Assembly (NCBI GenBank): GCA_002869385.1 | Contig: PKTB01000002.1 | Location: forward strand, 3,264-67,263 | Length of the DNA stretch: 64,000 bases | Direction of reading: 5' to 3' | Source: Marinilabiliales bacterium | Lineage (GTDB): Bacteria > Bacteroidota > Bacteroidia > Bacteroidales > ML635J-15 | In this document: in pieces, positions 1 through 62,800 of the stretch | Numbering within the stretch: position 1 is the stretch's first letter | Layout of the letters: every line of letters begins with the position of its first letter | Notes under the pieces: generated by a model | What the model was told of the DNA's origin: nothing | What the model saw: only the letters and a program-made list of their open reading frames with translations | Databases searched by the model: none | Program-made: the position numbers and the translations under genes

Positions 1-1697
1 GATGATGATACAGTATATGTTGGTGTGCTGGATGCATCTTGCCATTCAAAATTAACACCACTTACATTTGGATTAATTACAAATGGATCTCCATTACATA
101 TCAATGTATCGTTTATAAAATCAAATGGTGGTAGAGAATTACTGACGTGAACCATCATTGATAAAGATTATTCAACACAGCTTGCATCTCTTGTAAAATA
201 CATCGTTACAGTATAGTCTCCAGAACTAGTATAAGTATGGAAAACATCGTAACCGGTAGCGGTGTTACCGTCACCAAAATCAAACCAGACTCCTGATATT
301 CCAACGCCATCTGTATAAAAACCAACACCATTGGCTGATTCTTCGCAATTTAAAGTGTCTTGATATACATCGTAAGATATGGAGTCGTTTCCTATTACAA
401 TATTAAAATCAACATTTAATGGCTGTATATTTGCTCCCGCTAGGTAGCCGTAAGACTCAACATCTCCAAATCCGTAAACTGTTGTTAGAACACCTTCGGG
501 GCACGAAACAGTATGAGTTCCTTGTGCAACATTTTGACGATTATAAGAGTAATCAGGATTTGATGGTACCGTTGTCCATCCTGCTATAGTTGAGCCGTCT
601 AAAGTTACATTTCCCGTATAAGGTGTTTCGCAAACAATATTGGTGTAGAATTGATTAATAGCTGGTGTGTTAAAAGCCTGGAAAACAATACTTTCTAAAG
701 TTTGCTCGACAGGAGATAACATAATCATAAATGGGTCAGAAGTTACACCATCGCATGAAGTCCCCCTACTATATTGAGCAACAGAAATAGGACCGTCACC
801 AACAATATAACAACCAACATTAAGGTAAACTTCATGGAAATCACCAGCATTTAATAATATTGGAGCACCTCCATTTATTGTAATATTAGTGTTGTCTTCA
901 CTAGCTAGGATTCTATATTGATCTCCATTTCTTGTCATTAATGGGACTGTGATATACTCTTTTCCCCATGCTTTTAGAGGTATCATTTGTTCGTATAGAT
1001 GGTCGCAATAATCGCAAGTTGTAGGTACCTTAGCACATTTATTTCCTGCAAAAACTGCAAAATTGTTACAGTTCCCAACATCTGTAGCACTGACAGTTGT
1101 TCCTGTAAGGTCCCCAGTACTCTTAACTAAATATACTTCACCTTGGTCAAGTGTAATTGTGAAAGGGACTCCGGCACCTACACCCCCTGAAATAGCTACC
1201 GTCGGAACAATCTCAATACTTGTATTATCTTGAATTCCGACAACTATAAACATTGTTGGCTCAGTTGAAGAAAATAAACTGTATGCATTAATTAAATAAG
1301 AGTCACCGAGAGCATGTGTTGGCATGACAAGTGTCGCATCTGAAGAAGCTGTCCTTTGATTAGCAGAATATGCTGCAATATCATTATTCGAAACAATATG
1401 TATGCCTTTGTTAATAACAGTGTTGCCAATATCAATAGCTACATCTTGTGCCGCAGGGATAGTTACTTGTACCGAACCATTTGGTGCTATTGTGAAGTTT
1501 TCTGACCATCCTGTTCCTGGAATACTAACCGTTCCGGTACTACCTGCTTCGGAAGTTAAATACAACAAAGTATTTGCCGGATCATCAAAGTTCTGCATAT
1601 ATGCAAGCCAAAAATCATTTCCGAGAGTACTGTATTGAGAATAGGCTGATATATAACCTAGTAATACAAATGTAAAAACAATGTATAATTTTTTCAT
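1..1697 (-). pseudogene. Secreted multidomain adhesin, N-terminal part (signal peptide, IgGFc-binding-protein-N-like domain, PKD domain). It continues past the left edge and has one in-frame TAA at complement 168..170.
   Basis: The ORF 168..1697 starts MKKLYIVFTFVLLGYISAYSQ (signal peptide) and has the GNDFWLAYMQNF...LYLTS motif typical of the IgGFc_binding N-terminal domain. The C-terminus reads FDFGDGNTATG...YTVTMY (PKD). Translating the same frame past the TAA gives SLSMMVHVSNSLPPFDFINDTLICNGDPFVINPNVSGVNFEWQD, open to base 1. Confidence 0.7.
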
Positions 1698-1843
1698 ATT
1701 TGGTTGTGGTCACAGATTCCAAAGCAAATATAATAAATATTTTAATATCTTGTATTCTAAATATCTTATTTTTAGTTGTTTAGAATGTGTTTTATTTAAT
1801 CATTTATTTTAGCATTAAACTTGTATATTACTACAAGCTTTTA

Positions 1844-1851
1844 TAATTTTG
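1844..1851 (+). promoter_or_regulatory. Candidate Bacteroidota -7 promoter box (TAATTTTG, consensus TAnnTTTG) immediately upstream of mqnA
   Basis: Exact match to TAnnTTTG, 5 nt before the ATG at 1856. This spacing implies a leaderless or very short leader. Confidence 0.35.
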
Positions 1852-1855
1852 CTAC

Positions 1856-2605
1856 ATGATAAAAATATCAAATGTTGATTATATAAATACTTTGCCTTAT
1901 AAACATGCATTTATAAATTCTGACTTTATAAAGAAGAATGCTGTTGTTAAAGGAGCCCATCCTGCAGGTTGTGTTGATGAACTGTTAAATCATAAAGCAG
2001 ATATTGGTTTAGTTCCTGTTGGTGCATTGGATATGTTAAAGGATATTAAACTTATTCAAGAATATGGAATAATTTCACAGAAAAGTGTTGATTCTGTACT
2101 TCTTCTTTCAGATGTTCCAAAAGAAAACCTTAAACAAGTTTATCTGGATTATCAATCAAGATCATCAAATGGTTTTGTTAGAATTTTATCAGATAAGTTA
2201 TGGAAATTGAATTTTGAATATTTAGTCTCTAAAAAAGGTTATGAAAATAATATTTATGATAAAACCGGTGGCCTGGTTATTGGAGACCGGGCATTGAAAT
2301 TGAGGAATAAGTTTAATTATTGTTATGATATTGCTGAAGAATGGTACAAGTTGACTCAAAAACCTGCTGTTTTTGCTATATGGGTAGCAAACAGTAATGT
2401 AGAAGATGAATTTATCATGAGTTTTAAGACTGTTCTTGAAAATGCTGTGGTGCATAAGAATGAAATTGCTGAAAAATATGCTTCTGAGTATTCGTATTTT
2501 GATTTAAAAGATTATTTGCGGAATAAGATTTGTTATCGTATTGGTAAAAACGAGATAGAAAGCATGAATCTATATAAGAAGTTATTAAAAGAATTATCTG
2601 ATTGA
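1856..2605 (+). CDS. mqnA: Chorismate dehydratase-like protein, futalosine menaquinone pathway (MqnA / VitK2_biosynth family)
   Basis: 249 aa. Starts ISNVDYINTLPY; also has ADIGLVPVGAL, LVIGDRALK and PAVFAIWVAN, all typical of the MqnA periplasmic-binding-like fold. Confidence 0.7.
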   Translation: MIKISNVDYINTLPYKHAFINSDFIKKNAVVKGAHPAGCVDELLNHKADIGLVPVGALDMLKDIKLIQEYGIISQKSVDSVLLLSDVPKENLKQVYLDYQSRSSNGFVRILSDKLWKLNFEYLVSKKGYENNIYDKTGGLVIGDRALKLRNKFNYCYDIAEEWYKLTQKPAVFAIWVANSNVEDEFIMSFKTVLENAVVHKNEIAEKYASEYSYFDLKDYLRNKICYRIGKNEIESMNLYKKLLKELSD

Positions 2606-2698: not shown

Positions 2699-4276
2699 AT
2701 GAAACGAGGATTATTTATTTTATTTGTTTTGAGTTCTGTGGTAATGTTTGCTCAGGATGATCTAAGCTCTTCAGATTGGAAAATGACTCAGGCAAAAATG
2801 TTTTTCGAGGATGGACAAACTGAAAATGCATTAGAGATATATCTTGAACTATATCAGGATTTTCCTACAAATGATTTCTTGAATTTAAGAATAGCAGAAT
2901 GTTATAATGATATTTATGATTATGAAAATGCATATGCGCATCTCAAGAATGCTATTGATAATAACCCTTCCTCTGAATATTTAGACGATATCAATTTCTG
3001 GTTTGGTCGAACTCATCATAAAATGGGAGATTTTGATCTTGCTTATTCTTATTATGAAAAGGTGAAAAAAGGAACTGAACTAATAGATAGTTTATATGTT
3101 CAGAATTTAATGCAACAATGTTTGTCAGGAAAAGAGATTTATGAAAACAAGGGTAATTATTTTTCTGAAAATTGCGGACCTAATGTTAATTCTGAATATA
3201 ATGAGATATTTCCGGTAGTAGCTTTTGGCGAAGATAAACTGTTTTTTACAACAGACCGAAAAGTTAATGAACATCAGGATGGTCATCCTTCAACAGGACT
3301 TTGTGATTATTCTGTTATGGAATCATACATAAAAGAGGGACAGTTTCAAAAAGCAGTAGTTCCAGATCAGGTTTTCTCTAATGGGAAAGATTATATTTTG
3401 ACATCTGTTGGAGCAGGGAATGGAGAGTTTATTCTCTATAAAAATAGCCCCGAATTTGAAGATAACGGAGATTTATATTATCTGTTATTGACAGATGAAT
3501 TTGATGTTTCACAACCGGTAAATATGGGTGAAACTGTTAATTCAATTAAATTTGAAGGAGCGGGAAGTTTGGATTTTATCAATCAGAAGTTCTATTTCTC
3601 ATCAAATAGCAACAATAAAAAGTCAGAAGAAAAGGATATCTTTTACAGTAACAAACGAAATTCAAACTTTTCAAATAGCTTGGTCGTTGATGAATTTAAT
3701 AGTGAGCTCGATGAGGACTTTGTTTATATTCATCCGGGAGGTGATTTTGTTGTTTTTGCATCAAACTCTGGTAAGTCGATGGGTGGATACGATCTTTTTA
3801 TAAGTGTGCTTAAAGATAAGAAATGGAGCGAACCTGTAAATCTTGGATATCCTTTTAACTCAGTTGAAGATGAGAGGCAGTTTTCACTTTCTGTTGACGG
3901 GCAATATGCCTATATTTCATCTGACCGTATAGGAGGATAGGGGAGAATGGATATTTATAAAATGGAATTTGGTACATTTATGCAGGAAAAATTTGGCTTT
4001 CATCCGGGTTTAACTGTTATACAAGGGCAAGTAACAGATGAAAATTATGATGAAGTATCAACAAAAATTTCTATAAGCAATGATTTAAAAGATTGCTATA
4101 ATCAAAAAGTAGATACAGATCTGGAAGGATATTTTTCTGTTGCTGTTAAAACGGGAACAAAATATACAATCGAGATTAAAGAAAGTGCTTACGAAAAGTA
4201 CAGTTTAACTCTTGATTTAACAGATTCTTCCAGATCCAGAGTTAATTTTGATATTGAACTTCAAACAAAAGAATAA
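2699..4276 (+). pseudogene. Secreted TPR plus PD40 (TolB-like beta-propeller repeat) protein with a C-terminal beta-sandwich domain; in-frame TAG at 3938..3940
   Basis: ORFs 2699..3940 and 3947..4276 share a frame. The junction reads SSDRIGG*GRMDIYKM, which recreates the PD40 repeat signature GGxGxxDIY also seen internally (SNSGKSMGGYDLFISV). Signal peptide and TPR-like N-terminus are present. Confidence 0.7.
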
Positions 4277-4302
4277 TTATGTAATACATTGTCAGAGAGT
4301 TC

Positions 4303-12906: not shown

Positions 12907-13464
12907 ATGTTTGATAGTATTTATACTAAAGCTCTTCTGTTTTTAATTATTATATCTTTTTTTTCCTGTGTAGGAACAAAAATACATGATGACAGATTTC
13001 ATACGTTTACTTGCAAGTCTGAGTGGTCAGAAACAGAAATTGAAATATGTGAATCTACATCAACAATTATTGAAGGATCTGATTCGACAAAAATAATATT
13101 TAAGAAAACTAATTTACCTGGACAAGGGCAGGCTCAACCATTATTAAGAACAGTCTGGAGAAAACCGAAAAATAGGACTTATGTAGTCAGTGTACAGTTT
13201 TGTAACAAGCGAAATGATTTGTGTTTTGATATACTTCCCGATTCTGCAAAAACCGGACTCGTTGGACATGAGTTAGTTCATGTGCAGGATTACAAAAACA
13301 GAGGTTTCTTTAATATGCTTTGGATGGGGATTAAATACTCATTATGTAAAAAATACAGAACAAGAATTGAATATGTAACCGATTCAACTACTATAGCTAA
13401 TGGGATGGGATACGAAGTGTTGAATTTATTAAGGTTTGTTGAGAATTCAGGCTTAGCTTCTTAG
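12907..13464 (+). CDS. Hypothetical lipoprotein with an HExxH motif
   Basis: Lipobox FFSC. GHELVHVQDY is a zincin-like HExxH. No further family assignment. Confidence 0.4.
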   Translation: MFDSIYTKALLFLIIISFFSCVGTKIHDDRFHTFTCKSEWSETEIEICESTSTIIEGSDSTKIIFKKTNLPGQGQAQPLLRTVWRKPKNRTYVVSVQFCNKRNDLCFDILPDSAKTGLVGHELVHVQDYKNRGFFNMLWMGIKYSLCKKYRTRIEYVTDSTTIANGMGYEVLNLLRFVENSGLAS

Positions 13465-16312: not shown

Positions 16313-17119
16313 ATGGATAATATCATTAAGAATAAAATTTCTGGTTATGTTAAGATAGAAGCAAAAAACATTTACTACGAAATAATTAATTCTGAGCAGC
16401 TTAACTCTACAGATAAGCTGCTCATATTTTTGCACGAAGGATTAGGTTCTGTTGCTCAGTGGAAAGATTTTCCTGTTTTAATTTCAAATTAATTAAAAAT
16501 ACCCGCATTAGTCTATGATAGGTTTGGTTATGGAAAGTCATCAAAATTAAAAAATGAGCGTAATGAAACTTATCTCGAAAAAGAAGCTAAGGAAGACTTA
16601 CCTATTTTATTGATAAAACTTGGATTTCATGACAGGAATAAAATTCTGATTGGTCATAGCGATGGAGGGTCAATAGCATTAATATATGCATCTCAATTTC
16701 CTGAAAGAACTTATGCTGTTATTACTGAAGCAGCTCATACTTTTGTAGAACATCATACTATTAAAGGTGTTAAACCTGTTGCTGATTTGTTTGAAAACGG
16801 TGGGTTAAAAGAGAAATTGACAAAATATCATGGTGAAAATACTGAATCAATGTTTTATGGCTGGTATAATGTATGGTCCAGTAAAAAGTTTAGTAAATGG
16901 AATATCGAATCATATCTCTCAAAAATAAAATGTTATGTTTTAGCAATTCAGGGAAAGGATGATGAATACGGGACGTTTAAACAACTAGAATCCATACAAA
17001 CGCATATTGGTAATAATCGTATTAAAATACTTTTTATTGATAATTGTGCTCATACACCTCACGTTCATTTTAAAGAATATGTTAGTGAAATGATGATAAA
17101 ATTTATCAAGGATTTATAA
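16313..17119 (+). pseudogene. Alpha/beta hydrolase; in-frame TAA at 16490..16492
   Basis: The ATG at 16313 gives MDNIIKNK...LLIFLHEGLGSVAQWKDFPVLISN*LKIPALVYDRFGYGKS, which runs in frame into ORF 16610..17119 with the nucleophile elbow GHSDGG. Confidence 0.8.
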
Positions 17120-18329: not shown

Positions 18330-18332
18330 AAC

Positions 18333-18381: not shown

Positions 18382-19131
18382 ATGAAAGTACTAGTTTGTA
18401 TTGGAAACGTTCCTGACACAACCACTAAAATTAGGTTTGATGCTGAGATGAAAAATCTTGACACAAACGGAGTACAGTGGGTTATTAATCCTTGGGACGA
18501 ATTAGCTCTTACAAGAGCACTCGAAATTAAAGAAAAATCAGGTGGAAAAATTTAAAAAGTATCTGTTGTAAACGTTGGAGGTGCTGGTTCAGAACCAACA
18601 ATCAGAAAAGCTTTGGCTATTGGTGCTGATGATGCATTAAGAGTTGATGCAGAACCAACAGATTCATATTTTATTGCTGCTCAAATCGCTGAAGTGGCAA
18701 AAAACGAAGGATACGATATTATATTTGCCGGCCTAGAATCAAGTGATTTTAATAGCGGTATTGTTGGTACAATGGTAGCAGAATTTATGGATATACCATC
18801 AGTATCTGCAGTTTCATCATTTGACTTTAATGACGGAGCATTTTCAATAACTCGCGAAATTGACGGTGGTAAAGAATCTATTTCTATTGAACCTCCTTTT
18901 ACAATTGTTGTGCAAAAAGGTATTTGTATCAATCCTCGTATTCCTGCAATGAGAGGAATTATGATGGCAAGATCAAAGCCGATTAAAGTTTCACAACCTG
19001 TAGAAACAGAAGCATTAGTTGAAGCAACTACATTTGAAGTGCCACCTGCTAAAGCAGAATGTAAAATGGTTGATCCTGAGAATACAGATAATTTAATTGA
19101 CTTACTTCACGGAGAAGCAAAAGTTATCTAA
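18382..19131 (+). pseudogene. etfB: Electron transfer flavoprotein beta subunit; in-frame TAA at 18553..18555
   Basis: MKVLVCIGNVPDTTTKIRF...VINPWDELALTRALEIKEKSGGKI*KVSVVNVGGAGSEPTIRKALAIGADDALRV is contiguous in one frame with ORF 18613..19131. Confidence 0.9.
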
Positions 19132-23416: not shown

Positions 23417-24754
23417 ATTAATTACGACGAAAGATTTGAAAATGTAACAGTATTAGGAGCTGCCGGAAAAATGGGTAGCGGAATTCTGTTGCTGACGTCA
23501 ATGGAGATGTTTGACATTTCTATGAAACCCGAAAATCGGGATAAACAGTACACGCTTTATGCTTTGGATATTTCTCAAAAAGCACTTACAGGTTTAATGA
23601 AATATATCCGATTGCAATTGGTTAAAGCTGCAGAGAAGAAACTTAATATTTTACGTAATGTTTATGCAGACAGAGCTGACCTAATTGACAATGCTGATAT
23701 TATTAACGAATATGTTTGGGATGTAATGGGAATTATTCGCCCTGTAACAACTTTAGAATCTGCTTATGAGTCTAAAATAGTTTTTGAGGCTGCAAGTGAA
23801 AATCCTGAGTTAAAAGTGAAAATGTTCTCACAGATTAATGAGAATTCTAAAGTTGAGCCATGGTTCTTTACTAATACATCATCAATTCCGATAGGCTATC
23901 TAAATAAAGAAGCAAAACTTGACGGTCGTGTATTAGGTGTTCACTTTTATAACCCACCAGCAGTACAAAAGCTAGTTGAAGTTATTAAGTGCGATGAGTC
24001 AAAACCTGAATTGTCTTAGATAGTAACTCAGTATATTAAAAATATGCGTAAAATTGAAGTTCCTGCTTATGATGTAGCTGGATTTATTGGAAACGGACAC
24101 TTTATGCGTGATGCATTGTTTGGAATCAATATGCTTGAAAGACTCAAGTCTGAAATGAGCTTTGCTGAAGCAGCTTATTGTGTAAATAAGGTTACTCAGG
24201 ATTTTATGATTAGACCAATGGGTATTTTCCAACTAATTGATTATGTTGGAATTGATGTCTGTCAGTTCATTATGAAAGTTATGAATCCTTACGTTTCTGA
24301 TGAAACAATACATAGTCCTTTGCTTGACTCTTTAATGGAAATTCAAGTAAAAGGTGGTCAAAATCATTATGGGTCTCAAAAAGACGGATTTATAAAATAT
24401 GAAAAAGGAAGAATTGCAGCATATTGGGACATGGATAAAAAAGCATATGTTTCAGTAGATGAAATTGCTGAAAAATGTGATGCATACCTTGGTGAGTTAC
24501 CAAAAGGACACACTCCATGGAAAGCGATTGTAAGAAACAAAGCTAAGAATGATATTCTTCAGGCATATTTTAATGCGATGAAAGAAACAAATAATAATGG
24601 AAGTAAACTTGCTCTCGAGTATACTAAAAAATCCAAAGATATCGGACAGGGACTAGTTGACAATAAAGTTGCATATACAGCTGATGATGTAAATACAGTT
24701 CTACTGACAGGATTTTTCCATGCTTATGGTCCAATTAACGATTTTATTAATTAA
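23417..24754 (+). pseudogene. 3-hydroxyacyl-CoA dehydrogenase family protein; in-frame TAG at 24017..24019 and no ATG/GTG/TTG ahead of the Rossmann motif
   Basis: ORFs 23471..24019 and 24044..24754 share a frame (…KCDESKPELS*IVTQYIKNMRKIEVPAYDVAGFIGNGHF…). The frame is open from 23399 and encodes NVTVLGAAGKMGSGI, so the NAD-binding loop starts before the first ATG. ATT at 23417 is the only plausible start. Confidence 0.8.
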
Positions 24755-34466: not shown

Positions 34467-34913
34467 CTATTCAGAATAAACTTCAAAGTCAACACTTACT
34501 TTGATGTTTTTATAAATTTTAACTGTTGCAGTGTAATTTCCAACTTCTTTAATTCCTTCACCTTTAATTACAATGTTCTTACGATCAATGTCAAAACCTT
34601 CTTTTGCAAGAATTTCTGAAAGCATAATAGTATTTACAGAACCGAAGATTTTACCTGTTTAGCTAGTTTTAGCCGGTACTTTAATTTTAAGACCTTCCAT
34701 TTTACTTGCAACAGCTTCTGCATCTTCGCGTAGTTTTGTCTCTTTATGAGCTTTTTGTCTCATGTTTTCTTCATGCATTTTTTTAGCAGTTTTGGTTGCT
34801 AAAATTGCATATCCTTGAGGAATGAGATAATTTCTTGCGTAACCTGCTTTAACATTTACGATATCATCAACATGTCCTAAGTTCTCTACGTCTTGTTTTA
34901 ATATAATTTCCAT
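34467..34913 (-). pseudogene. rplI: 50S ribosomal protein L9; in-frame TAA at complement 34659..34661
   Basis: [34 protein letters not shown]…KVPAKTS*TGKIFGSVNTIMLSEILAKEGFDIDRKNIVIKGEGIKEVGNYTATVKIYKNIKVSVDFEVYSE, all in one frame. It is third in the rpsF-rpsR-rplI operon. Confidence 0.9.
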
Positions 34914-35722: not shown

Positions 35723-36985
35723 ATGAAACGGATTTTGGATCAGATAGAACTATTTTTACTGATATTTACAGTATTTATGCTGCCGATTCATATTAAAATC
35801 ACTTCTCTTACAATTGGGGCATTATTTGTAATTTCATTATTGAAAGTTGATAATTATAAGTCGTTTTTAAATTTATTTAAAAGTTTTAAATTTTATATTT
35901 TGATCTCGCCTTTGATAGCATCAATTCTGGGGCTACTTAATACAGAGTATATTCCAGAGGCTAAGTCACAGGTTGAAATAGTACTTTCTTTAGCCGTTTT
36001 CCCTTTTATTTTTACATCATTCTCAAACAATCAAATACCAAAGAAAATATAATATTTACTTAGTTTTTATTTAATAAGTATTGTTTTTGCTTATTTTATA
36101 TGTCTTGCCGTTGCTGTCCCTCATTATTTTCGATCAAGAGATATAGATGTTTTCTTTTATTCCCATTTTAGTTCTATAATAAAAGGGCCTCATCATCTCT
36201 CTTATTATGTTTTGTTTGCGATATTTTTATTGGTATTTAATATTATTAAAAAACTTGAGCTATTTACTAGAGAGTCAAAACAATTAAGAGTATTTAAGTA
36301 TGTTAGTTTGATAATAATGATCTTGTTTTTATTCCAATTGTCAAGTAAGATTACTATTTTATTACTTGTGATTTTCTTTATGATCATGATAGTTTATATA
36401 GCAAGAAATAAAATACTAAACTACAAGCAGATTATAACGATTAGTGTGGTGATGATTGGAATGTTTGCTTTGATGTTTTGTATGCCAAAACCACGAGCCA
36501 GATTCTTAAGCATGTATCATTCTGCAATTGATTTCAAAGTGAGTAAAAAAAGTCAGGAATCAACCAAGCTTAGGTATGCAGCTATCAATGCTGGTTATCA
36601 TTTAATACAAGAAAATTTTTGGACAGGTGTTGGCACAGGCGATTTGTCGACAGAGATGAGTGAATATTACAAAGAAAATGGAATTAAATGAGCATATATT
36701 CAGCACATTTCACCACATAATCAGTTTATGCGGACATTCGTTATGTACGGAATTTTTGGTTTTCTTGGTCTTATATTGTTGTTTGTAGTTATGATAACTG
36801 ATGCAGTTAGAACTAAAAATACAATATACTTATTTTTGTCTGTTTTAATGGTGTTTTTATTTGCTGTTGAAGATATGTTTATGATTCAGGATGGTGTTGT
36901 GTTTTTTGCGATGTTTACATCATTTTATATGTTTGCATTTGATTTTTTAAAAATTAAAAGAAAGGTTGTGAGGGTTAATGAATAA
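35723..36985 (+). pseudogene. O-antigen ligase / Wzy_C family membrane protein, paralog 1; in-frame TAA at 36050..36052 and TGA at 36689..36691
   Basis: ORFs 35657..36052, 36212..36691 and 36728..36985 are all in one frame with no other stops between them. Multi-TM, with the Wzy_C-type motif SPHNQFMRTFVMYGIFGFLGL. I start it at the ATG at 35723. Confidence 0.7.
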
Positions 36986-38255
36986 GGTTCTTGATTATAT
37001 TGATTTTTATGTATACGTTTTAATAGCGTTTTTAATTCCTGTTTTCTCAAAAGCAATTCCTATTCTTATAGTGTTTTTAATTCTTACTACTTTTTTGAGA
37101 ATTTCTACATATAAGAATTTGTTTAAGCTTTTAAAATCAATCGATTTCTATATTTTGATTGCACCATTTTTGCTAATAGTTATAGGTTATTTCTATTCAA
37201 CAAATCGTCCCGAAGCATTTGTAAATATAGAAACGGGGTCATCTTTAATAATTTTTCCATTCATTCTTTATTTTAGCCGGAATAATCATCTTAAGGAAAA
37301 GTTTAATTGGATTTTTAAGGCTTTTGTAATAAGTGTTTTATTTTCGTATGTCATCTTATGGGTTGAGGCTTTACCAAAGTATCTTGAAAATGGAGATGCC
37401 TTTTTTCTTTATTATACAAGCTTTAGTAAGATAATAAAAACACCTAATCACCTTTCTTATAATGTGCTATTTGCTGTAGTAATAGTTCTTCTAAATTTAT
37501 TTGGGATTGAAGATTTACTTATTAAGAAACGAAGTAAATTCTCGATTTTTATCAATTTATTTCTCTTTTTAGTATTATCGGTTTACCTATTCCAACTTGT
37601 AGCAAAATAAACAATTTTTATTTACTTATTGATCATCCTATTAGTATTGGCAATTTCGTATTATAAAAAGATTATTAAAACATATGCTTTAGCAACATTA
37701 TTAATTTTTGTTATAGGTCTTTCATTATCAATGCTTGCTATTCCTAGAGTAAAAACAAGATTTACTAATTTGATTGAACTTGTTGTTAATAGGGATAAAG
37801 TAGATTACACGCAACAAGAGTCATCTACAATGCGTTTTTCTGCAATGAAGTCCAGTGTTGAGATTATAAAAGAGAATTGGCTAATTGGAGTTGGCCCCGG
37901 AGATGTTGTCGATGAGCTGGAATTAAGTTACGAAAGAAATAATTTTAGAGCAGCAGAATGTAAACACACTAATCCGCATAATCAATTCTTACGATCATTT
38001 TTAATGTCCGGTATTTTTGGACTAATTTCATTTATATTGATATTTTATATTCTATTCAGAAATGGGATTAAAAAGAAAAGCGTTTTAGCATTTTTATGGT
38101 CATTTATAATGTTGATTATATTTTTGGTTGATGATATGTTCATTTTTCGAGATGGAGTTGTTTATTTTGCTTTTTTTACTTCATATTTCATTTTTATTCA
38201 TCCAAAATCTAAGGCATTTATCGAAAAGAATAATACAATAAGTTCGCAAACATAA
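36978..38255 (+). pseudogene. O-antigen ligase / Wzy_C family membrane protein, paralog 2; in-frame TAA at 37608..37610
   Basis: ORFs 36978..37610 and 37629..38255 share a frame (LFQLVAK*TIFIYLLIILLV). It is colinear with paralog 1 (LFQLSSKITILLLV; NPHNQFLRSFLMSGIFGLISF). Confidence 0.7.
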
Positions 38256-38276: not shown

Positions 38277-39083
38277 ATGATTCAAAAAATTACCAGCAAT
38301 AAAAATAAATTAATCCGTAATGTAATTTTATTACAATCAAAATCACGTGAAAGAAAGAAGCAAAATCTTATTGTTATAGAAGGTCGCAAAGAGATAGAGC
38401 TTGCTTTTCAATCGGGAATTAATGTTAAACAGTTATTGTATTGCAATGAGATTATTTCAAGTTCGGAAGTCCAAAAAATGTTCGAGAATTTAAGTAATGA
38501 TATTCAATATTTCGAAGTTAGCCGTGATGTTTTCTCAAAAATTTCATATCGTGAAACTACTGGCGGGCTAGTTGCTATTGCAGAAACTCCTGAAAAAAAT
38601 CTATGTGATTTAAAAATTACTGGAAAATCTGTTTTTGTAATATTGGAGTCAGTTGAGAAACCTGGTAATCTTGGTGCAATAGCCAGAATCGCTGATGGCT
38701 CAGGTATTGATGGTGTTATTGTTACAGAGCCTCTAACAGATATTTATAATCCTAATGCTATTAGGGCTAGCTTAGGATGTGTTTTTACAAACGATATTAT
38801 TGTTGCTGAATTTTCGGATGTAATTGATTGGTTACAGAAGAACAAAATAAAGTCGTATGCTGCAGAGCTTAAAGCTTCGGAGCTTTATCATAAAGCCGAT
38901 ATTCAAGGAAATGTTGCATTTGTCTTTTGAACAGAGGCAACAGGATTAACAGATAGGTGGATTAATGCTTGTGATTATAGAATAAAAATACCAATGCTGG
39001 GATATATTGATTCATTAAATGTGTCAGCTTCTGTTGCAGTTGTTGTCTACGAAGCAATGAGACAACGTAATTTTTTGGTTTGA
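38277..39083 (+). pseudogene. TrmH/SpoU family RNA 2'-O-methyltransferase; in-frame TGA at 38928..38930
   Basis: LESVEKPGNLGAIARIADGSG, then NVAFVF*TEATGLTDRW…IPMLGYIDSLNVSASVAVVVYE, where the SpoU motif is (V/L)FG(S/N/T)E..G(L/I). The frame ends at a TGA at 39081..39083. Confidence 0.85.
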
Positions 39084-46247: not shown

Positions 46248-49200
46248 ATGTTGAAGACAAAAGTAAAATTATTGATTCTGATTATCTTATTCTTTAGTAG
46301 TTCATTAAAGGTATTTAGTCAGCCAATTATATCTTCATTACAAATAGTAGAAGTAGGAAATACTTCAGTATCTCTACAATGTGAAGTGCTAAATGAGAAT
46401 GTAAATTTTGTTACTAATAGAGGTTTTGTTTGGGATGATACAATGAATCCAATAATAGAAACAGGTATGGGATTTTCGGACTCAGGTGAAGATATTGGAT
46501 TGTTTTGTGATACTATTACAGGTTTTAATGATGGGCAGATATATTATATAAGAGCATATGCTATAAATGATGATGGAATAACATATAGTGATACAGAACA
46601 GTTTTCAACACTAGAACTGAATAATTGTGGAGTAATAACAGATTTGCGCGATGGGAATACATATGAAACAGTTGAGATTGGTGCACAATGTTGGATGGCT
46701 GAAAATCTTAGATATTTGCCAACTGTTACAGGTGATTTTGCAGATTGGTACAGTGAATCTTCAAATTACGCAGTATATGATTACATAAGTAATGACAATC
46801 TTGTTTCGCAAGCAATCCTTGAAGATGAATATAGAAATTATTGTGTACTGTACAATAGTTATGCTGCTAACGCTGCTTGCCCGGAGGGTTGGCGACTACC
46901 CACAGAAACTGATTTAAATGTATTGGAAAATTATATAATAAATACCTCAGAATTTGATCATGCTTATCTATTAAAGTCTTGTAGACAAGAGTCGTCACCA
47001 TTGGGTGAAATGTGTGAAACTGAGCAACATCCAAGATGGGATGAATCAGATTATTATGGAATTGATAATTATGGTTTTAATGCATTACCCGGAGGTTTGA
47101 GACATTTAACAGGTAGTTTTCTTGATATGGGGTCTACAGGTTACTGGTGGGGATCGAATATTAATAAGGATAATCAGTCGGTAAGATTTTCAATGTCTAT
47201 CGATAATAATAACTTAAATATTTCGTATCGTGAGCGAGAAATGGGGTATTCAATTCGATGTATTCAAGAAACATCTTTAGGAGCAATAGCTCCAGAAATT
47301 ATTACTGTTGAACCATTTGATATTACACAAATGAGTTTTGTGACAGGAGGAGAAATCGTAAATGATGGTTCGTGTTCGATTGTTGAAAAGGGAATTGTTT
47401 ATGGTAATTTTACTGGTATAAATTTATAATTAAATGACGGAAAAATTCTTTGTGGTATGAGTAGCGAGAATTATACCACAAAACTGCTTGGGTTTAATGA
47501 CGATTCAACTTACTATATTAGGGCTTATGCAATAAATCTTGTGGACACAGCTTATGGAGATGAAATTGAGATTTTAATGCCAAACTTTGATGATTGTGGC
47601 TTATTGACAGATATTAGAGATGGTAATATCTATAAAACTGTGCAAATTGGGAATCAATGCTGGTTGGCTGAAAATTTAAAATATTTACAGGAAGTAACAG
47701 GTCCCAATGAGGAGTGGGTTTCTGAAGATCCCAAATATGCAGTTTATGCTTATTTAGATGCCTTAAACTCTGTTGCAGATGCAAAGCTAGAGGAGAACTA
47801 TTTGAATTATGGCGCATTATATAATTGGCCAGCTGCACAAGATGCATGTCCTGAAGGTTGGCATTTGCCGACAAACACAGAATTGGAACAATTATTTGTT
47901 AGTGTTGAGGAGTACTCTATTGAGTATTTTGAGGAATACTTTTTGGGTTTGGGAAATGCAATGAAATCATGTAACAAGAGTCTCGAAGGTTGTTATTGTT
48001 CAACAACAAATCATCCATATTGGTCTGTTAGTAATTCTGCTGTCAGTAGAAATTTTGTTGGGTTTAATGCTTTTCCAGGAGGACACAGAACTGATGATTT
48101 CTCAGGTTTAATCTATAGTGGTAGGTTCTGGGTAGATGATTACGATTATATTAATCATACTTCAACACCTTTACTTTTTACACTTAGTCATACCAGTAAT
48201 GATTATTATCTAAACGATGTTAACATTACAGAGACATACAGCCCGGGTTATTCTATTCGCTGTATTAAACATGCTGATTTATCTGCCAGTATTCCAAGTT
48301 TAGTTTTAAATCAAGTAGGTCCGACAACAGAGAATGCTGTTGATTTAAGTGCAGAAATTACTGATATAGGAGGAGATAATATTGTGTTGAGAGGGTTTGT
48401 TATTAGTAGTACCCCATCGCCTGAATTAGAATCATGTGAATCATACAAACTTATAGAAGATCAATTATTGGAATATGCGGCTACTTTACAAGGTTTTTCA
48501 CCAAATAGCACATATTACATTAGAGCATTTGCAGAAAACAATGTTGGGATAGGTTATAGCAATGAGATTGAAATAAATACATTAGCTTTCTCAGATTGTG
48601 GTGAGTTAGTTGATTCTAGAGATGGCAAGACATATAAAACAAGCATTATAGGAGAACAATGTTGGATGTCTGAGAATCTTAAGTATTTACCATCAATTAA
48701 TGGCCCTAATTCAGATTGGTCTACAAATGAGCCAGCTTATACTGTATATGATTATACAGATGAAGCAAACTCTATTCTAGATGCTGAAGCTACTGAATAC
48801 TACAATGCATATGGTGTTTTATATAATTGGGCATCAGCCCCAAATGCATGTACAGATGGCTGGCATTTGCCGACCATAAATGAGTGGGATGTATTAATTA
48901 GTTATCTAGAACAAACATATGACCTTATTAATGAATCTAATAGCGCTTGTCAAGGTGTTGCTCATACTTTAGTTTCATGCAGGTCTTTAAATTCATTAAT
49001 TGATTGCTATTGTCAGGTTGTCGAGCATCCATATTGGAATTACGGTGTAAGTGACGACTGTAGAAGCGATTGGTTTGGTTTTTCTGTATTACCTTCAGGA
49101 ACAAGATCTTATAATGGTACTTACTCAAATATGGGCAGCTCGACAGGTTTCTGGATAGTTGGATATACTACAGATTATAATGCAAGTATTATATTCTTTG

Positions 49201-52200
49201 GTTCATCTGATAATATTAATCTATACCATCAGAATAAAAGAAATGGTTCTCCTATTAGATGCATTAAAGACTATAGCCCTTTAGCTGATGTGCCTCAAGT
49301 GTCGACAAATGATATTATATCAACCGAAGCTACTATGATTAAAGTGTAGTGTGAGGTTGTAAGTAGTGGTGGCGTTCCAGTTGTTGAAAGAGGTTTAATC
49401 TATAATACTACCCCTACTTTAGATATTGATAATAACTTGGGTTATTTAGCTAGTGGTGTAGGACCTGGGGTATATGAAGTTTCTATTAATGGTTTAGATA
49501 AAAATACTGAGTATTATTTTAGAGCTTATGCAATTAATAGTTCTGGTATTGCATATGGAGATGTGATTTCTGCAAGCACAATCGAATATGATAATTGTGG
49601 TGTTCTTTTTGACGATAGGAATGGTAAAGTCTATGAAACAGTAATTATTGGATCCCAATGTTGGATGGCCGAGAACTTAAAATATTTGCCTGAGGTCACA
49701 GGGAATGATGCTGAGTGGTATTCAACTGATCCAAGATATGCTGTATATGATTATGATGATATTGCTAATTCAACAATATATGCTCTCAGTAATCCTAATT
49801 ATGGTGATTATGGAGTCCTTTATAATTGGTATGCTGCTATTGACGCTTGTCCAGAAGGATGGCATTTGCCCGATACATTAGAGTGGTCATTTATGTTTAA
49901 AGAAATACAAGATAATTTTGGTATCGAAAACATAAATGATGAATATGGAATGGGAAATTCTCTAAAATCATGTAGACAAGGGGCAACACCATTGCAATGT
50001 GAATGTGAAGTTAATGATCAGCCTAGATGGGAATACTATAATGATGAGTGTTATGGAACAAATCTTTTCGGGTTTTCAGCTTTGCCTGGAGGTATCAGAC
50101 ATTATTTATCTGGTAATTTCGGTGATAATGGATATGTTTCATATATGTGGTCTGCAACACCTTTGGATGAAATAGATGCTTTTTGTTATTATATGCATTC
50201 AGGTTTGGGGGATATTAGACGATACGAAAGAGAGAAGGAATATGGATTTTCTATACGTTGTGTTAAAGATTTGTCTGAAGATACTGAAGAACCGGAAATA
50301 ATTACTTATACCCCTACAGATGTTACTTTAACATCTGCGCTAATTGGATGAGAGATCGTTACTAGTGACGACGTTGTAGTTTTTCAAAAAGGTGTTTTAG
50401 TTGGTATTGGACCTAATGTTACATATCAAAATAACCTAAGAACATATCTTAGCGATGATAATAGTTTAGATTTTGAGTTTTATTGTGACAAATTGATGGT
50501 TGGAACAAATTATTATTGTAAAGCATTTGCAATTACAAGTTTTGGGTTGCAGTATGGACAGGCACATCTTTTAACCACTGTTTCTGTTGAGAATTGTGGA
50601 ATAATAACTGATGAGAGAGACCTAAACTCTTATAAAACTGTTAAGATCGGTAATCAATGTTGGATGGCGGAGAATTTAAAATATTTGCCAAGTGTAGATA
50701 GTCTTTCATCTGATTTAGAAATGACTAGCCCACAATATTTTGTTTCAAGCTATTCTGGTGAAGAGAATGATGTATGGGAGGCTATAAACACTGAGGGGTA
50801 TGCGGCTTATGGCGTGCTTTATAACTGGTATGCAGCAACTGGAGGAGGAAGTGCACCTAATAATCAAATTGGAGTTCAGGTGATTTGCCCAAGTGGATGG
50901 CATTTGCCATCTGAGCAGGAGTGGATTGTTTTTGAAATGAACATGGGTATTCCGGATGAAGAAATTTTCGATTTTTATCGTGGGGATAACGAAGGATGTA
51001 AACTTGCAGGTAATTATAGTAAATGGAATATTGATTCTTTGGTGCTAGATGATGAATTTGGAGTATCAGGTTTTAATGCTTTACCAGGTGGAGCAAAATA
51101 TAATACAGGAATTAGTTCAGTAGGGGCTTATGGGAATTTCTGGGTTTCAGCTGATACAAGTGTAAATGATTTTATTTATCGACGTTTGGCCTATAGCAGT
51201 CCTCGAATTTGGAGAGGTGAATTATCCAGTTGGAATGCTGCTTTTTCAGTACGTTGTATGAAGAATTTGAATAGTGAAATAGTTGTGCCAGAAGTAATTA
51301 CAGGAGATGTAATTTCAATTTGTCCAGATTCCGTAATATTGTCTGGAAATGTGTTGTTTGATGGTAATGAATTGTTGGCTAACAAAGGAATAATAATTGG
51401 GTTAAATCCATTTTTAACTGTTGAAGATAATGTTGAGATTATATCTGATCCTTCAATTGATTTTGAGATATTTTCAACTTTTTATGGTTTAATGCAGGGA
51501 ACAACCTATTATTTTAGGGCATATGCTATAAATAGTGTTGGTACAGCTTATGGTGAAGTTAGAAGTTTTGATGCTGATTATTGTGGTGAAGTAGATTTAA
51601 ATATTGTATATTCTGAACCACAGCTTTCTTCCGAAAATAATTTAGATGTTTGTTGGGATTACGAAAATGATCAACCTAATGAAATGCAGATACAATTATC
51701 AGGGACATATCCACCTGCTGCATATCCATTGGATGATGAATCGATATACTATACTTGGGATTTTGGTGATGGAAGTCCAATTGAAGAAGGAATAGGCTTA
51801 AACGAAGTTTCACATATTTATCCTGAAAGTGGAGGATATAATCTTTTGGTAACTATTACAGATTCACAAGGTTGTGAAAATGCTAATATAATAAATCAGA
51901 TTGTTAGAGTCTCATTCCCAATTGATTGGGTATCTGAGTCCACTTATCTTTCAAATAATACTATTCTACAAGGAGAGTTTGTCGAAATGTGTGTTGCCTT
52001 TAATGATACAATTTGGACTCCGGAAATTTCATATCAGTTGTTCGAAAATACTGATACAACATTAATTATATACTGTGATGGTAATGTATATGAAACATCA
52101 TCAAGTATATTTATTGATTTATTTAATGATGGTGATATCATAAATTCAGAAAATTCATTCAATTCTGTTAATCTGAATTTAGTTCATTCATTTTTGGGAG

Positions 52201-58161: not shown

Positions 58162-59184
58162 CTAATACCTGTCACATGGTAGGGCTACTTGAGTAAGAGT
58201 CCTACTAAGATCTTTATATACAATAGAAATTTCAAATGCACCTCGGTTATTTGTTGCCTGGCTAAGTTTGGATACGTTAATATCATAACTTAATCCAACA
58301 TCAAATCCATAAACACTCACACCACCTGTGAAAATAAGAGCATCAAAAGTATTTAGAGCTGTACGCATTTCAAAACCACCAAAAGCTTTCTCAATCAGAT
58401 TTCCTTCATCTAAAAGGTAATATGCTTGTGAGCCGATAATCCAGTCTCCGGCACGTTTGTGATACATAGTTAATAAATGTGGCTTAAGTATAATATTATC
58501 TTTTAGAGGATATTCTACACCACCATGTATAACTACACGCATTGGTAAATTATCTTCAGTTCTTAAGAAAGATTCTTCCGGACTGTTAATATGAAAAATT
58601 GCGAGTCCACCAAAAGGTTTAAGCTTGCCAAAGTCTCCTTTATATGATACGCCAAAGTTAATATCGGGATAATTAATATTCTCGTCCCATGTAGTAATAT
58701 TGTTCGGTAATTCTGGGTCAAATACACCACTTGTTTAGTTGTATTGACTTGGTACAGTTAATCCGTCAAGAGAGAATGATTTAACTATATATCCTACTTG
58801 CAAACCTACTCCAATTTGGTGAATCTGATCAATCTTACGCATATAATTTGCAGACAAGAATAGTTTATTTACAGTAAGCATACTGCTTCCAGACTTATCA
58901 TTTACAAAGAACACTCCTAATCCAATATCAGAGTCTTTTGTTAGTTTAAAGGGTTTATCAAAACCAGCTGATATAGTTTTGTAAGGAATACCTATGGCAC
59001 TCCATTGAGTACGATAATTGTTAGTAAATCTCCAATTGCCATCAAAAAATCCTGTTTGGGAAGGATTTAGTGACATAGGTGATGCATAAAACTGAGAAAA
59101 GTGAATATCTTGTGCATTCACAATTTTGCTAGTAAATAAGCAACTTATTGCTATCCCGACTAATATAAAAACTATCTTTTTCAA
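58162..59184 (-). pseudogene. porP: Type IX secretion system membrane protein PorP/SprF; in-frame TAA at complement 58735..58737
   Basis: AQDIHFSQFYASPMSLNPSQTGFFDGNWRFTNNYRTQWSAIG is the PorP/SprF signature. Across the stop it reads TVPSQYN*TSGVFDPELPNN…FGGLAIFHINSPEESF…, joining in frame to ORF 58162..58542. Confidence 0.85.
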
Positions 59185-59209: not shown

Positions 59210-59217
59210 CAAATATA
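59210..59217 (-). promoter_or_regulatory. Candidate -7 promoter box (TATATTTG on the minus strand) for porP/sprF-ompA-amidohydrolase
   Basis: The plus strand reads CAAATATA, 26 nt upstream of the porP ATG. Confidence 0.4.
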
Positions 59218-59602: not shown

Positions 59603-59646
59603 ATACAATACCTGTGAATGTTTATTAAGTATTTCGTATTTCCGTT

Positions 59647-59772: not shown

Positions 59773-59824
59773 ACAGTTTTTAATATTTTTTACCTATGCA
59801 AATTGTTTTTTAAGTAAAAAAGTT

Positions 59825-59832
59825 TAATTTTG
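59825..59832 (+). promoter_or_regulatory. Candidate -7 promoter box TAATTTTG upstream of the PKD adhesin gene
   Basis: Exact TAnnTTTG match, 48 nt before the ATG at 59880. Confidence 0.4.
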
Positions 59833-59879
59833 TTTGTAATATCGAAAGATACTGTTTTTTAATTAAAAGCATTGTAATA

Positions 59880-62800
59880 ATGAAAAAAGGTATGAGAATA
59901 TTTTGGGTTTTGATGTTTGTTTTATTTGCATCAATTAGTTTTGCTCAACCGGTTGTTAGCTTTGATGCTTCAGCTATAGAAGCATGTGCACCGGCGGAAA
60001 TTACTTTTACAAATACAACAACAGGATGCACTGGAGCCGCTACTTATTATTGGTTAGACGGTAGTGGAGATAATTCAAATAATGAGAATCCTACTTTTTA
60101 TTATAATAGTGGAGGTACTTATACTGTTTCTCTTGAAGTTACCTGCGATGGTTTTACTGAGTCAAATACTATGGAGATAACTATCTATGACCCACCATCA
60201 GCATGATTTGCAGAAACTCCTTTAACAGGATGTGTCCCATATAATGCTAGTTTTAATGATGAATCAATTGAAGGTGATGGCCCTATAAATGGTTGGCAAT
60301 GGTATTTTGGTGATGGATTTAGTTCAACAACTCAGAATCCTTCACATCCATACACTACTGGAGGTAGCTTTAATGTTAGTCTTATTATAACAGACGTTAA
60401 TGATTGTACTGATGAATATACCAGTAATGGATTGGTTTCAGTTGCAAATCTTCCTGTTGTAAGTTTTACTGCAGATGAACCTTATATGTGTTATACTCCA
60501 CATACGGTAGAATTTACTGCAAGTGTTACAACTTCTTTTGGACTTGGATACACACTTGAATGGGATTTTGGTGATGGCAGCCCAACAGGTTCAGGCTCAC
60601 CTGCCAGTCATGAATATACAGTTGATGGGCTTTATGATGTTTCTTTAACTGCAACAGATGAATATGGTTGTGAAACTACAGTTGTTTATACAGATTTTGT
60701 TCAGTTAACAACAGCTACTCCAGAATATACTGTTTTGGAAGGCGATATTGTTTGTAAGGATCAACCTGTTCATTTTCAAAATGAAACAAGTTATTCTTGC
60801 TCATGGGATTTTGGTGATGGTTCTCCAACAAGTTATAACCCAACACCTGAACATATTTATTCGGCTTCAGGTGATTATGAAGTTACATTTACTGTTGATC
60901 CAGGAGGAACATGTGAAGCTAGTACTAGTTTTACTTTGACTGTTGAAGAGGTTACAGCTTCTTTTACAACTGATCCGACAAACTTATATTCTTGTACTGT
61001 TCCTTTTGAAGTTGACTTCTCCAGTACTGTTTCTGCAAATGTAACAGGTTATTTCTGGGTCTTTCAGGATGGAGGATCTTCTAATGAAGCAAATCCAACA
61101 TATACTTTTAACTCTGTTGGATCATGGCCTGTTGCTTTAACTGTTACGACAGAGCATGGTTGTGCGTATACATCTTTCGGACCTGTAGTTACAATAAATG
61201 TTCCTGATGCAAGTTTTACTGCTGACGAAATTGAGGGATGTGAACCATTAACAGTTAACTTTACATACACAGGAACAACACCTCAACCAAGTATTGAAGA
61301 CTATAGTTTGGATTTTAATAACGGCCAGACAATTTCTGGTGGAGGTCCTGCAGAATCTTCAACATTTGATGCTGGTGAATATACTGTAACATTAACAATT
61401 ACAGACGACCAGGGATGTATCGGAACTTCAACTGTTGATTTAAATATTGGAACTGTGTATGAACCTGATATAGATGTTTTTAATAATGATGAAGATCATA
61501 CTGTACTTGAAGACCACTACATTTGTGCACAAGACACTATGGCATTGTGGCTTGCTGAATGGGATTGGGAAGATTATGAATTTACTTGGTGGATTGATTC
61601 TTCACAAAATCAACAGGCAAGTCAGGAATATACTGAATATGCATTTGATCAGGATACAGGTTGGTATGACCTCAACATTATCACTTTGTATAACGGTTGC
61701 CGAGATACGATATATTGGGATAGTCTTCATGTTGATGGGCCTATTATAAATTCAATAAGTAATTCGACAGATTGTGCAAGTCCACTGGATTTTGTTTTTA
61801 CTTTAAATGAAACCGAAGCCGAATATTGGCATTGGGAGTTCTATTATTGGAGTGGAGATACTCAAATAATGATTGAAGAAGAAGATCCATCAACAAATAA
61901 TATATATCCAATAACATTTCCGGCGCAACAAAGCTATTGGTGTCGGGTAACTGCATATAATTCAATAACTTCATGTGAATTTGTTGATTCTGTTGAGATT
62001 AGTATATCTGCACCTCAAGCTATCTTTACACTTATTGATGATTAAATATGTGCAGAAACTCCACTTATTTTAAACGGTGGATCTTCGCTTAATGTTTCTG
62101 AATATTACTGGGATTATGGTGACGGGCAAAATTCCGGTTGGGTTACAGAGTCAGCGGTTCAACATGTTTGGAACAATACAGGCTGGTATACTATAACACT
62201 TACTGTTAGAGATGGAAACGGTTGCGAAAATTCAATAACTGATGATATTCATATATTAGGACCTGATATCGATATTAATGTAAGTGACACTTTTGGTTGT
62301 AATAGCCTTAATGTAACATTTACTGATAATTCTGTGGCAGACGAAGCAATTATCCAGGTTCTGTGGGACTTTAATAATGGTGATCAGTTAAATGGAAGCA
62401 TTGTTGAGTACACGTATGACGAAGTTGGAACATATGATGTGACAGTTTATGTTCAAACTGCTTCAGGTTGTTTGGCAGATACAACTTATTTCGATTTAAT
62501 TACTATTGCATCTGTAAACGCTGCATTTGCCGCACCAAATCAAATTGCTTGTGTTGGAGATGAACTTACATTTAATGCAGGAGAAACTTATCCGTCATAC
62601 GTTTATTCGTGGAACTTTGGTGAAGGAGCTCCTCTAGTAGTGAACAATCCAAATCCAACACATACATATACTTCAGGAGGCTATTTTGATGTGACTCTAA
62701 ATGTTGATAATTTGTTAGGTTGTACAGATGAAATAACATACGAAGATTTTATAATTGTTCAAGACCCAACTGCTAATTTTAGTCTTGGTGATAATACATT

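Follow-up and report, generated by a model that had tools for sequence, protein, structure and literature searches.

The premature stop codons in the window, the whole 64-kb stretch of DNA that was analysed, result from a data-quality problem, not from the biology of the organism, an uncultured Bacteroidales bacterium, whose genes are intact. They are best accounted for by oxidative DNA damage carried into the consensus of this assembly, an explanation to which we assign a probability of about 0.85. The stops would be the nonsense subset of approximately 99 G:C>T:A changes private to the assembly.

Premature stop codons in the window

An earlier note on this sequence had listed 20 in-frame stop codons, spread over 17 otherwise intact genes, with no frameshift. 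All 20 are present in the window sequence at the coordinates and on the strands given there, and they sit in 16 genes rather than 17. Downstream of each stop the reading frame stays open for another 50-983 codons. Pfam domains span the stop in the hydrolase, etfB, 3-hydroxyacyl-CoA dehydrogenase (hadh), NMO/FMN oxidoreductase, ridA, rplI, both O-antigen-ligase-like paralogs (in paralog 1, the second stop), the TrmH-like methyltransferase and PorP/SprF. In four other assemblies of this contig the affected genes are predicted as single intact products, e.g. the FISUMP giant (2351 aa), the PKD adhesin (1470 aa), the adhesin (1139 aa), the histidine kinase (685 aa) and the TPR protein (525 aa). 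Thus the stops do break single genes, as had been proposed. The absence of frameshifts is also confirmed, as the window and the reference align over all 64,000 bases with no gaps.

The earlier note was right that only substitutions interrupt these otherwise intact genes, but it overlooked two premature stops, in the genes of a GNAT acetyltransferase (4282-4284) and of a 210-aa hypothetical protein (13462-13464), and the loss of the hadh start codon (23417-23419). The true number of nonsense changes is 22, in 18 of the 53 genes of the window. Among the genes hit are rplI, etfB, ridA and trmH, and hadh carries a nonsense change together with the start codon loss. The sites are listed below; the reference is the ENA/Logan sequence.

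168..170, minus strand: adhesin, codon 510, TAA; reference GAA (Glu), plus-strand C>A at 170
3938..3940, plus strand: TPR/PD40 protein, codon 414, TAG; reference GAG (Glu), G>T at 3938
4282..4284, plus strand: GNAT acetyltransferase, codon 2, TAA; reference GAA, G>T at 4282
13462..13464, plus strand: 210-aa hypothetical protein, codon 186, TAG; reference GAG, G>T at 13462
16490..16492, plus strand: alpha/beta hydrolase, codon 60, TAA; reference TCA (Ser), C>A at 16491
18553..18555, plus strand: etfB, codon 58, TAA; reference GAA (Glu), G>T
23417..23419, plus strand: hadh, start codon lost, ATG>ATT; G>T at 23419
24017..24019, plus strand: hadh, codon 201 of 445, TAG; reference GAG (Glu), G>T
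26316..26318, minus strand: Ig-like/PKD_6 surface protein, codon 388, TAG; reference TCG (Ser), plus-strand G>T at 26317
28254..28256, plus strand: TPR histidine kinase, codon 219, TAA; reference GAA (Glu), G>T
30439..30441, plus strand: NMO/FMN oxidoreductase, codon 259, TAA; reference TCA (Ser), C>A at 30440
32942..32944, plus strand: ridA, codon 31, TGA; reference GGA (Gly; Gly in 27/27 relatives), G>T
34659..34661, minus strand: rplI, codon 85, TAA; reference TCA (Ser), plus-strand G>T at 34660
36050..36052, plus strand: O-antigen-ligase-like paralog 1, codon 110, TAA; reference GAA, G>T
36689..36691, plus strand: O-antigen-ligase-like paralog 1, codon 323, TGA; reference GGA, G>T
37608..37610, plus strand: O-antigen-ligase-like paralog 2, codon 211, TAA; reference TCA, C>A at 37609
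38928..38930, plus strand: SpoU/TrmH-like methyltransferase, codon 218, TGA; reference GGA, G>T
47427..47429, plus strand: FISUMP giant, codon 394, TAA; reference GAA, G>T
49347..49349, plus strand: FISUMP giant, codon 1034, TAG; reference TCG, C>A at 49348
50349..50351, plus strand: FISUMP giant, codon 1368, TGA; reference GGA, G>T
58735..58737, minus strand: PorP/SprF, codon 150, TAA; reference GAA (Glu in P0008), plus-strand C>A at 58737
60204..60206, plus strand: PKD adhesin, codon 109, TGA; reference GGA, G>T
62043..62045, plus strand: PKD adhesin, codon 722, TAA; reference GAA, G>T

Comparison with other assemblies and relatives

The same contig was compared in ENA ERZ794998 (5.6x), ENA ERZ794999 (53x), Logan SRR5894289 and JGI 3300007102. 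The ENA and Logan sequences were compared over fetched stretches that jointly cover all 99 G>T/C>A sites described below, and the JGI sequence only where fetched. The two ENA sequences and the Logan sequence are identical to each other wherever the fetched stretches overlap. At each of the 22 nonsense sites they have a sense codon, their gene calls are intact, and they keep the unchanged base at every covered site among the 99. None of the changes of the window is present in the fetched stretches of the JGI assembly. Sense codons in a second assembly had been proposed as the mark of a technical artefact, and GAA, GAG, GGA, TCA and TCG are indeed what the ENA, Logan and covered JGI sequences contain. 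This supports consensus errors, one of the candidate causes suggested earlier.

Over 64,000 bases, the window differs from the ENA/Logan sequence by 110 substitutions and no indels. Comparison with relatives, a check that had also been suggested, favours the reference state. In addition to ridA G31 (27/27), related genomes have the reference state at R52 of buk, which is conserved in 115 of 115 relatives and replaced by Ile in the window, and at H62 of rpsF, which is kept in 10 of 10 relatives and replaced by Asn. A few differences between the window and ENA look natural (position 15601 and positions 33346-33367); at 33346-33367 related genomes favour the state of the window. NCBI nr contains two protein fragments, P0249 and P0248, whose break falls at the PorP/SprF stop of the window (58735), and therefore the stops are present in a public record.

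The JGI assembly has changes of its own. It differs privately at 18 positions in 33 kb, always by G>T or C>A and in 16 cases in GR context, and the overlap of this set with the changes of the window is zero. One of the private changes is a nonsense change in a DUF2807 gene. The FadD protein of the JGI assembly is shortened and ends just upstream of a GAA codon.

Substitution spectrum and coding consequences

Almost all substitutions in the window (99 of 110) belong to one class, with 50 G>T and 49 C>A, so that 0.47% of all G:C pairs are changed to T:A. Every premature stop arises from one such change in a GAA, GAG, GGA, TCA or TCG codon. The rate of change depends on the base 3' of the G: it is 1.03% for GG (40/3896) and 0.73% for GA (53/7277), against 0.10% for GC (4/4024) and 0.03% for GT (2/5997). 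The 16 trinucleotide contexts are uneven (chi-square p = 2e-10). Preference for a G followed by a purine is the known signature of 8-oxoguanine. The spectrum fits both CCG>CAG, described as an oxidation artefact context (PMC3616734), and the 8-oxoguanine pattern, in which changes favour the 5' G of GG and GAA and most often turn glutamate codons into stops (PMC10904009).

The distribution of the changes over the window is uniform (KS p = 0.91, variance/mean 0.93), and neither strand bias nor strand-phase blocks were seen there. The numbers of nonsense, missense, synonymous and intergenic changes are 22, 62, 11 and 3, compared to 19.6, 65.6, 9.7 and 3.7 under a neutral expectation weighted by sequence context. 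Thus there is no sign of selection on the changes in the window: nonsense changes are not depleted, and synonymous ones are not in excess.

Proposed mechanism and known systems

The proposed mechanism is guanine oxidation. 8-Oxoguanine forms mainly at a G located 5' of another purine, and polymerases pair it with A, leading to a T in the read. GAA, GAG and GGA, as well as TCA and TCG on the opposite strand, contain just such a GR site and are a single change away from a stop. Since the genome is AT-rich and such sites are one step from a stop, random oxidation would be expected to produce about one stop per 3 kb, with no indels and with all three stop codons. The damage probably arose outside the living cell, in the sample or during extraction, storage or library preparation, and the errors may have entered the consensus via very few template molecules per position or through a poor consensus step. 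The direct observations here are the spectrum and its sequence context, a pattern free of selection, gene copies that are intact elsewhere and the independent private set of the JGI assembly. Counted against the damage account is the error level of about 1% per susceptible site in the consensus of a genome that was assembled elsewhere at 5.6x and 53x.

A similar situation is the OxoG artefact, that is, C>A/G>T errors that arise when guanine is converted to 8-oxoguanine as DNA is extracted or acoustically sheared (Costello et al. 2013, Nucleic Acids Res 41:e67, PMC3616734). As in that artefact, nearly all changes are G>T/C>A, there are no indels, a G located 5' of another G is preferred (the published CCG>CAG reads CGG>CTG on the G strand), and the changes are missing from independent data on the same DNA, unrelated to biology and blind to the coding effect. 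However, the OxoG errors, which are G>T in read 1 and C>A in read 2, occur in deep human data sets at a low allelic fraction and are removed at variant calling, whereas the errors in the window are fixed in a deposited metagenome-assembled consensus; besides, GA sites in the window are changed almost as often as GG sites.

The same chemistry operates in cells deficient in MutY/MUTYH (COSMIC signatures SBS18/SBS36 and E. coli mutY lines; PMC10904009, PMC10995721). The window resembles them in the dominance of G:C>T:A, in the preference for the 5' G of GG and GAA, in glutamate-to-stop being the commonest effect, and in the skew towards stop gains and missense changes. On the other hand, real mutator lineages are selected and viable, whereas in the window the nonsense changes are at the neutral expectation and hit 18 of 53 genes, and the sister assembly has a separate private set.

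Recently host-restricted bacteria such as Sodalis and Mycobacterium leprae are rich in pseudogenes that have arisen by frameshifts, deletions, IS insertions and all types of substitutions. The window is similar to these genomes in that many genes are interrupted while the flanking sequence is still intact. However, not a single indel occurs over its 64 kb, and one substitution class makes up 90% of the differences; natural pseudogene decay, with its mixture of indels and all substitution classes and its downstream decay, was rejected on these grounds.

Alternative explanations

The context of 8-oxoguanine changes is identical in living MutY-deficient cells (PMC10904009), so chemistry alone cannot separate damage outside the cell from mutagenesis within it. 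A hypermutator clone, deficient in GO repair (mutY/mutM-type) or oxidatively stressed, in which about 0.5% G:C>T:A changes arose so recently that selection had no time to act, would fit the spectrum and the GG/GA context equally well. The natural-looking differences at 15601 and 33346-33367 indicate that the window is an independent population sample, and given the approximately 10 differences that are not G>T it is a slightly different one, hence, in principle, conceivably a distinct clone. Nevertheless, we consider such a clone unlikely. Nonsense changes occur at the neutral rate with no excess of synonymous ones, and the ancestral sequence is unchanged in three other assemblies. With premature stops in 18 of 53 genes and invariant residues of buk and rpsF replaced, extrapolation to the whole genome yields a cell that is not viable. 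Moreover, to account for the non-overlapping JGI set, two mutator clones would have to have arisen independently, each becoming fixed in its sample. Thus, of the recent mutator or mutagenesis history suggested in the earlier note, the 8-oxoguanine chemistry stands, and the history itself is disfavoured by the absence of selection, the unsurvivable load and the separate JGI set. No mutY, mutM or mutT was identified among the genes of the 64-kb window. It seems very improbable that the window comes from a real clone, or from one cell, of an anaerobic Bacteroidales bacterium undergoing oxidative mutational meltdown, with about 0.5% of the G:C pairs converted in vivo through 8-oxoguanine and a third of the genes knocked out before selection set in.

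It is also highly unlikely that a base-caller, read-corrector, assembler or polisher systematically turned G to T in the pipeline of the GenBank and JGI versions. These two affected versions are 135,315 and 135,316 bp long, compared to 135,219 and 135,228 bp for the clean ENA ones, and the near-equal size of the affected pair, unlike ENA, suggests a pipeline common to the pair and other than that of ENA. However, the order GG > GA >> GC, GT is what guanine oxidation chemistry predicts, and we know of no software error mode with such context dependence and strand symmetry.

Programmed readthrough, suppression or reassignment of stop codons that keeps the genes functional has a close to negligible probability. 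All five in-frame TGA codons correspond to glycine, which superficially resembles genetic code 25. However, ordinary GAA, GAG, GGA, TCA and TCG codons stand at the same positions in other assemblies of the genome, and these sense codons in independent assemblies refute the readthrough or suppression proposed earlier. TAA would have to stand for both glutamate and serine, and so would TAG. All three codons also serve as genuine terminators in the window, where 36 of the 51 complete genes end in TAA, 10 in TAG and 5 in TGA, and synonymous, missense and intergenic sites are changed as well, in neutral proportions. There are no tRNA genes in the 64-kb window.

Significance

Oxidative damage of DNA, if it is indeed the source, is seen here in a clear case of entering the consensus sequences of metagenome assemblies that have been deposited. 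In this GenBank-type record, false truncation affects about a third of the genes. Such errors would increase pseudogene counts, decrease completeness estimates and, as in the case of PorP/SprF, break up proteins in nr; they could also pass for genome decay, recoding or hypermutation. Stops produced by substitutions only, nearly all from glutamate, glycine and serine codons via G>T at GR sites, could provide a cheap flag for assemblies of this kind. For the organism itself the stops have no biological importance, since its genes are intact.

Premature stop codons and intact copies of the interrupted genes

The 20 in-frame stop codons listed in the earlier note were all found again at their positions and strands, and the frame stays open beyond each of them for another 50 to 983 codons, much longer than chance gives at 33% G+C. 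Pfam domains run uninterrupted over the stop positions (Abhydrolase_1, ETF, 3HCDH_N, NMO, Ribonuc_L-PSP, Ribosomal_L9_C, Wzy_C, SpoU_methylase and PorP_SprF). Thus the reading of these loci as single interrupted genes is correct, although the 20 stops sit in 16 genes, not in 17. No tRNA genes were found in the 64-kb window.

A query with the repaired PorP/SprF sequence retrieved an intact database protein of 340 aa (P0008) that differs from the window only by Glu at the stop. Starting from P0008, rpsR, a 214-aa protein, the VitK2 protein and FadD, contigs were reached that together cover the window from end to end.

Assemblies of the same contig
ENA ERZ794998, NODE_86: 135,219 bp, coverage 5.6
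ENA ERZ794999, NODE_66: 135,228 bp, coverage 53
Logan SRR5894289_311
JGI 3300007102, Ga0102541_1277314: 135,316 bp

In these assemblies each interrupted gene is annotated as one intact product; for example, the FISUMP protein has 2351 aa, the PKD protein 1470 aa, the adhesin 1139 aa, the kinase 685 aa, the TPR protein 525 aa, RidA 124 aa and L9 148 aa. ENA and Logan are identical at all bases where they overlap. Compared with them, the window has 110 substitutions and 0 gaps in 64,000 bases, which bears out the earlier claim that frameshifts are lacking, and the stop sites are sense codons, as this check against a second assembly of the same genome showed.

G>T (50) and C>A (49) changes account for 99 of the 110 differences. 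Each of the 20 listed stops arose by one substitution of this class, namely GAA>TAA (eight), GGA>TGA (five), TCA>TAA (four), GAG>TAG (two) and TCG>TAG (one). Two more stops and a lost start codon, missed previously, are also G>T changes.

4282-4284: stop in codon 2 of the GNAT gene, GAA>TAA
13462-13464: stop in codon 186 of the gene for a 210-aa protein, GAG>TAG, with 25 residues lost
23417-23419: start loss in the 3-hydroxyacyl-CoA dehydrogenase gene, ATG>ATT (G>T at 23419)

A nonsense change is present in 18 of the 53 genes of the window. No exact matches were found to its etfA, buk, ACAD, 104-aa and 213-aa proteins, because they carry G>T missense changes, nor to the ORF 4303-4701, because the GNAT gene is cut at codon 2 by the stop.

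Sequence context and neutrality of the changes

Of the 99 changed guanines, 93 have a purine as their 3' neighbour. The rates by 3' base are 1.03% for GG, 0.73% for GA, 0.10% for GC and 0.03% for GT (trinucleotide-context chi-square p = 2e-10). Oxidation of guanine to 8-oxoguanine (8-oxoG) is known to behave in this way. Costello et al. (PMC3616734) described a library artefact of C>A/G>T changes at CCG>CAG, where the oxidation potential is highest. The substitution class of the window is the same as in that 8-oxoG artefact, and the preferred guanine in the window is the one 5' of a purine. In MUTYH-deficient mice, G:C>T:A changes are reported at the 5' G of GG and GAA, with Glu>stop as the commonest amino-acid change (PMC10904009).

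Such a process makes stops unusually readily, since GAA, GAG and GGA (TCA and TCG on the opposite strand) are GR sites, that is, guanines followed directly by a purine, one step away from a stop. This explains the excess of nonsense changes (22) over the context-free expectation (12.7). The changes show no trace of selection. The neutral expectation, calculated with a separate rate for each 3' neighbour, is 19.6 nonsense, 65.6 missense, 9.7 synonymous and 3.7 intergenic changes; the observed numbers are 22, 62, 11 and 3. The changes are distributed uniformly along the window (KS p = 0.91, variance/mean 0.93).

No strand bias was seen (0.75% vs 0.95% of GR sites, p = 0.25), and no strand-phase blocks or single-strand runs occur in the window; thus there is no evidence of damage to one strand of one long template. 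The stops share no motif beyond the 3' purine, and methylation-motif base-calling errors are disfavoured for this reason.

Residues at the stop positions in relatives

The source is an uncultured Bacteroidales/Marinilabiliales-like anaerobe whose genes in the window include ptb-buk, etfAB, acyl-CoA dehydrogenase, thiolase and type IX secretion cargo genes. Among the species representatives of GTDB and the metagenome contigs of JGI, its closest relatives have at most 85% amino-acid identity (butyrate kinase); they served as outgroups, being too distant for recovery of ancestral codons. A scan of genome contigs with the 383-aa protein, a poorly conserved query, gave no match.

The residue opposite each stop was read from translated alignments to the relatives' loci. 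It is Glu in etfB, the 3-hydroxyacyl-CoA dehydrogenase and the first O-antigen-ligase-like paralog, Gly in ridA (27 of 27), trmH and again the first ligase paralog, Ser in the FMN oxidoreductase, rplI and the second ligase paralog, and Lys or Asn in the histidine kinase. One G:C>T:A step is implied at nine of ten sites, whereas codon usage would predict 28.6% (binomial p = 1e-4). Among private amino-acid changes at otherwise invariant columns, G:C>T:A makes up 16 of 43 in the window and 33 of 229 in the relatives (p = 9e-4). For example, Arg52 (AGA) of buk, invariant in 95 relatives, is Ile (ATA) in the window. The outgroups side with the reference, the ENA/Logan sequence, at 29 of 38 informative sites and with the window at two, both of which lie inside a small A>C cluster and outside the G>T class.

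The other 11 of the 110 differences resemble the usual variation within a population or the usual sequencing errors. At 15601 (T>G, Cys395Gly in FadD relative to ERZ794998), the window state also occurs in NCBI, Logan and another ENA record (P0251), which makes this difference a true polymorphism between samples. Six differences fall within 22 bp of the gene for the 383-aa protein, at 33346-33367 (four A>C, one A>G, one C>A). As the outgroups carry the window's residue at codons 34 and 35, this cluster looks like natural microvariation or a reference error rather than oxidation. A further difference at 33004 was grouped with it.

The JGI assembly and public records

In the comparable 33 kb, the JGI contig has 18 differences from ENA/Logan, at window-equivalent positions between 2266 and 55042. 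Every one is a G>T or C>A change, GR context holds for 16, and the window shares none of them. One of them creates a Glu>stop change in the DUF2807 gene at position 6945, and the JGI FadD protein (P0252) stops short immediately before a GAA codon. A private set of the same class means that the process recurs and that its changes are particular to each assembly.

The 90% cluster of P0008 includes two NCBI nr proteins from a contig of 135,315 bp. One fragment of the PorP/SprF gene (window 58162-59184), P0249 (128 aa), ends exactly at the window stop 58735, and the part downstream of the stop is P0248 (178 aa). Thus the window matches a deposited GenBank record. The two halves stand separately in nr, one of them with an ATT start. 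An in-silico edit as the source of the stops was rejected, since the nr fragments are split at the same stop and the JGI contig shows the same process independently. The sample accessions gave no literature match.

Origin of the stops

The stops are probably a known technical artefact, to which we assign a probability of roughly 85%. Template DNA would have been oxidised and copied as G>T, and the resulting errors may then have reached the consensus sequence in JGI-style assemblies, with the ENA/Logan ones left unaffected. Candidate routes of entry are a very low effective template number, heavy duplication, and the choice made in consensus or bubble resolution.

Error from oxidised template is the most economical reading. 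Readthrough, suppression or recoding that keeps the genes functional is excluded: other assemblies of this genome have sense codons at these sites, TAA and TAG would each stand for two different amino acids, all three stops serve as normal terminators (36 TAA, 10 TAG, 5 TGA), and synonymous and intergenic sites are struck by the same substitution process. The alignment of all TGA sites to Gly suggested recoding of TGA as Gly (code 25); this was rejected, since GGA>TGA results from a plain G>T change and GGA stands at these sites in the other assemblies. Natural pseudogene decay is likewise excluded by the lack of indels and the single substitution class. A living mutator deficient in GO repair, that is, a true clone undergoing oxidative mutational meltdown, would fit the chemistry, but a third of its genes would have to be knocked out without trace of selection, and a second clone with different sites would be needed for the JGI sample; we consider it very improbable.

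Neighbouring genes

Two tandem O-antigen-ligase-like (Wzy_C) paralogs overlap by 8 bp at 35723-38255, and orthologs of both occur in three relatives' loci (L002, L003, L065). The surface-protein cluster at 46248-64000 has the composition typical of a type IX secretion cargo neighbourhood, comprising the 2351-aa protein with Fib_succ_major repeats and Por_Secre_tail, a TPR/OmpA protein, PorP/SprF and the 1470-aa PKD adhesin. The region 17187-26011 encodes acyl-CoA dehydrogenase, etfBA, an Fe-S/CCG oxidoreductase, enoyl-CoA hydratase, 3-hydroxyacyl-CoA dehydrogenase and thiolase; ptb-buk at 30768-32785 completes this butyrate-type fermentation set, which is partly syntenic in the Marinilabiliales MAG BM518 (L001).

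The biological interest of the stops themselves is low. The split PorP/SprF gene in nr shows the artefact spreading into protein databases.
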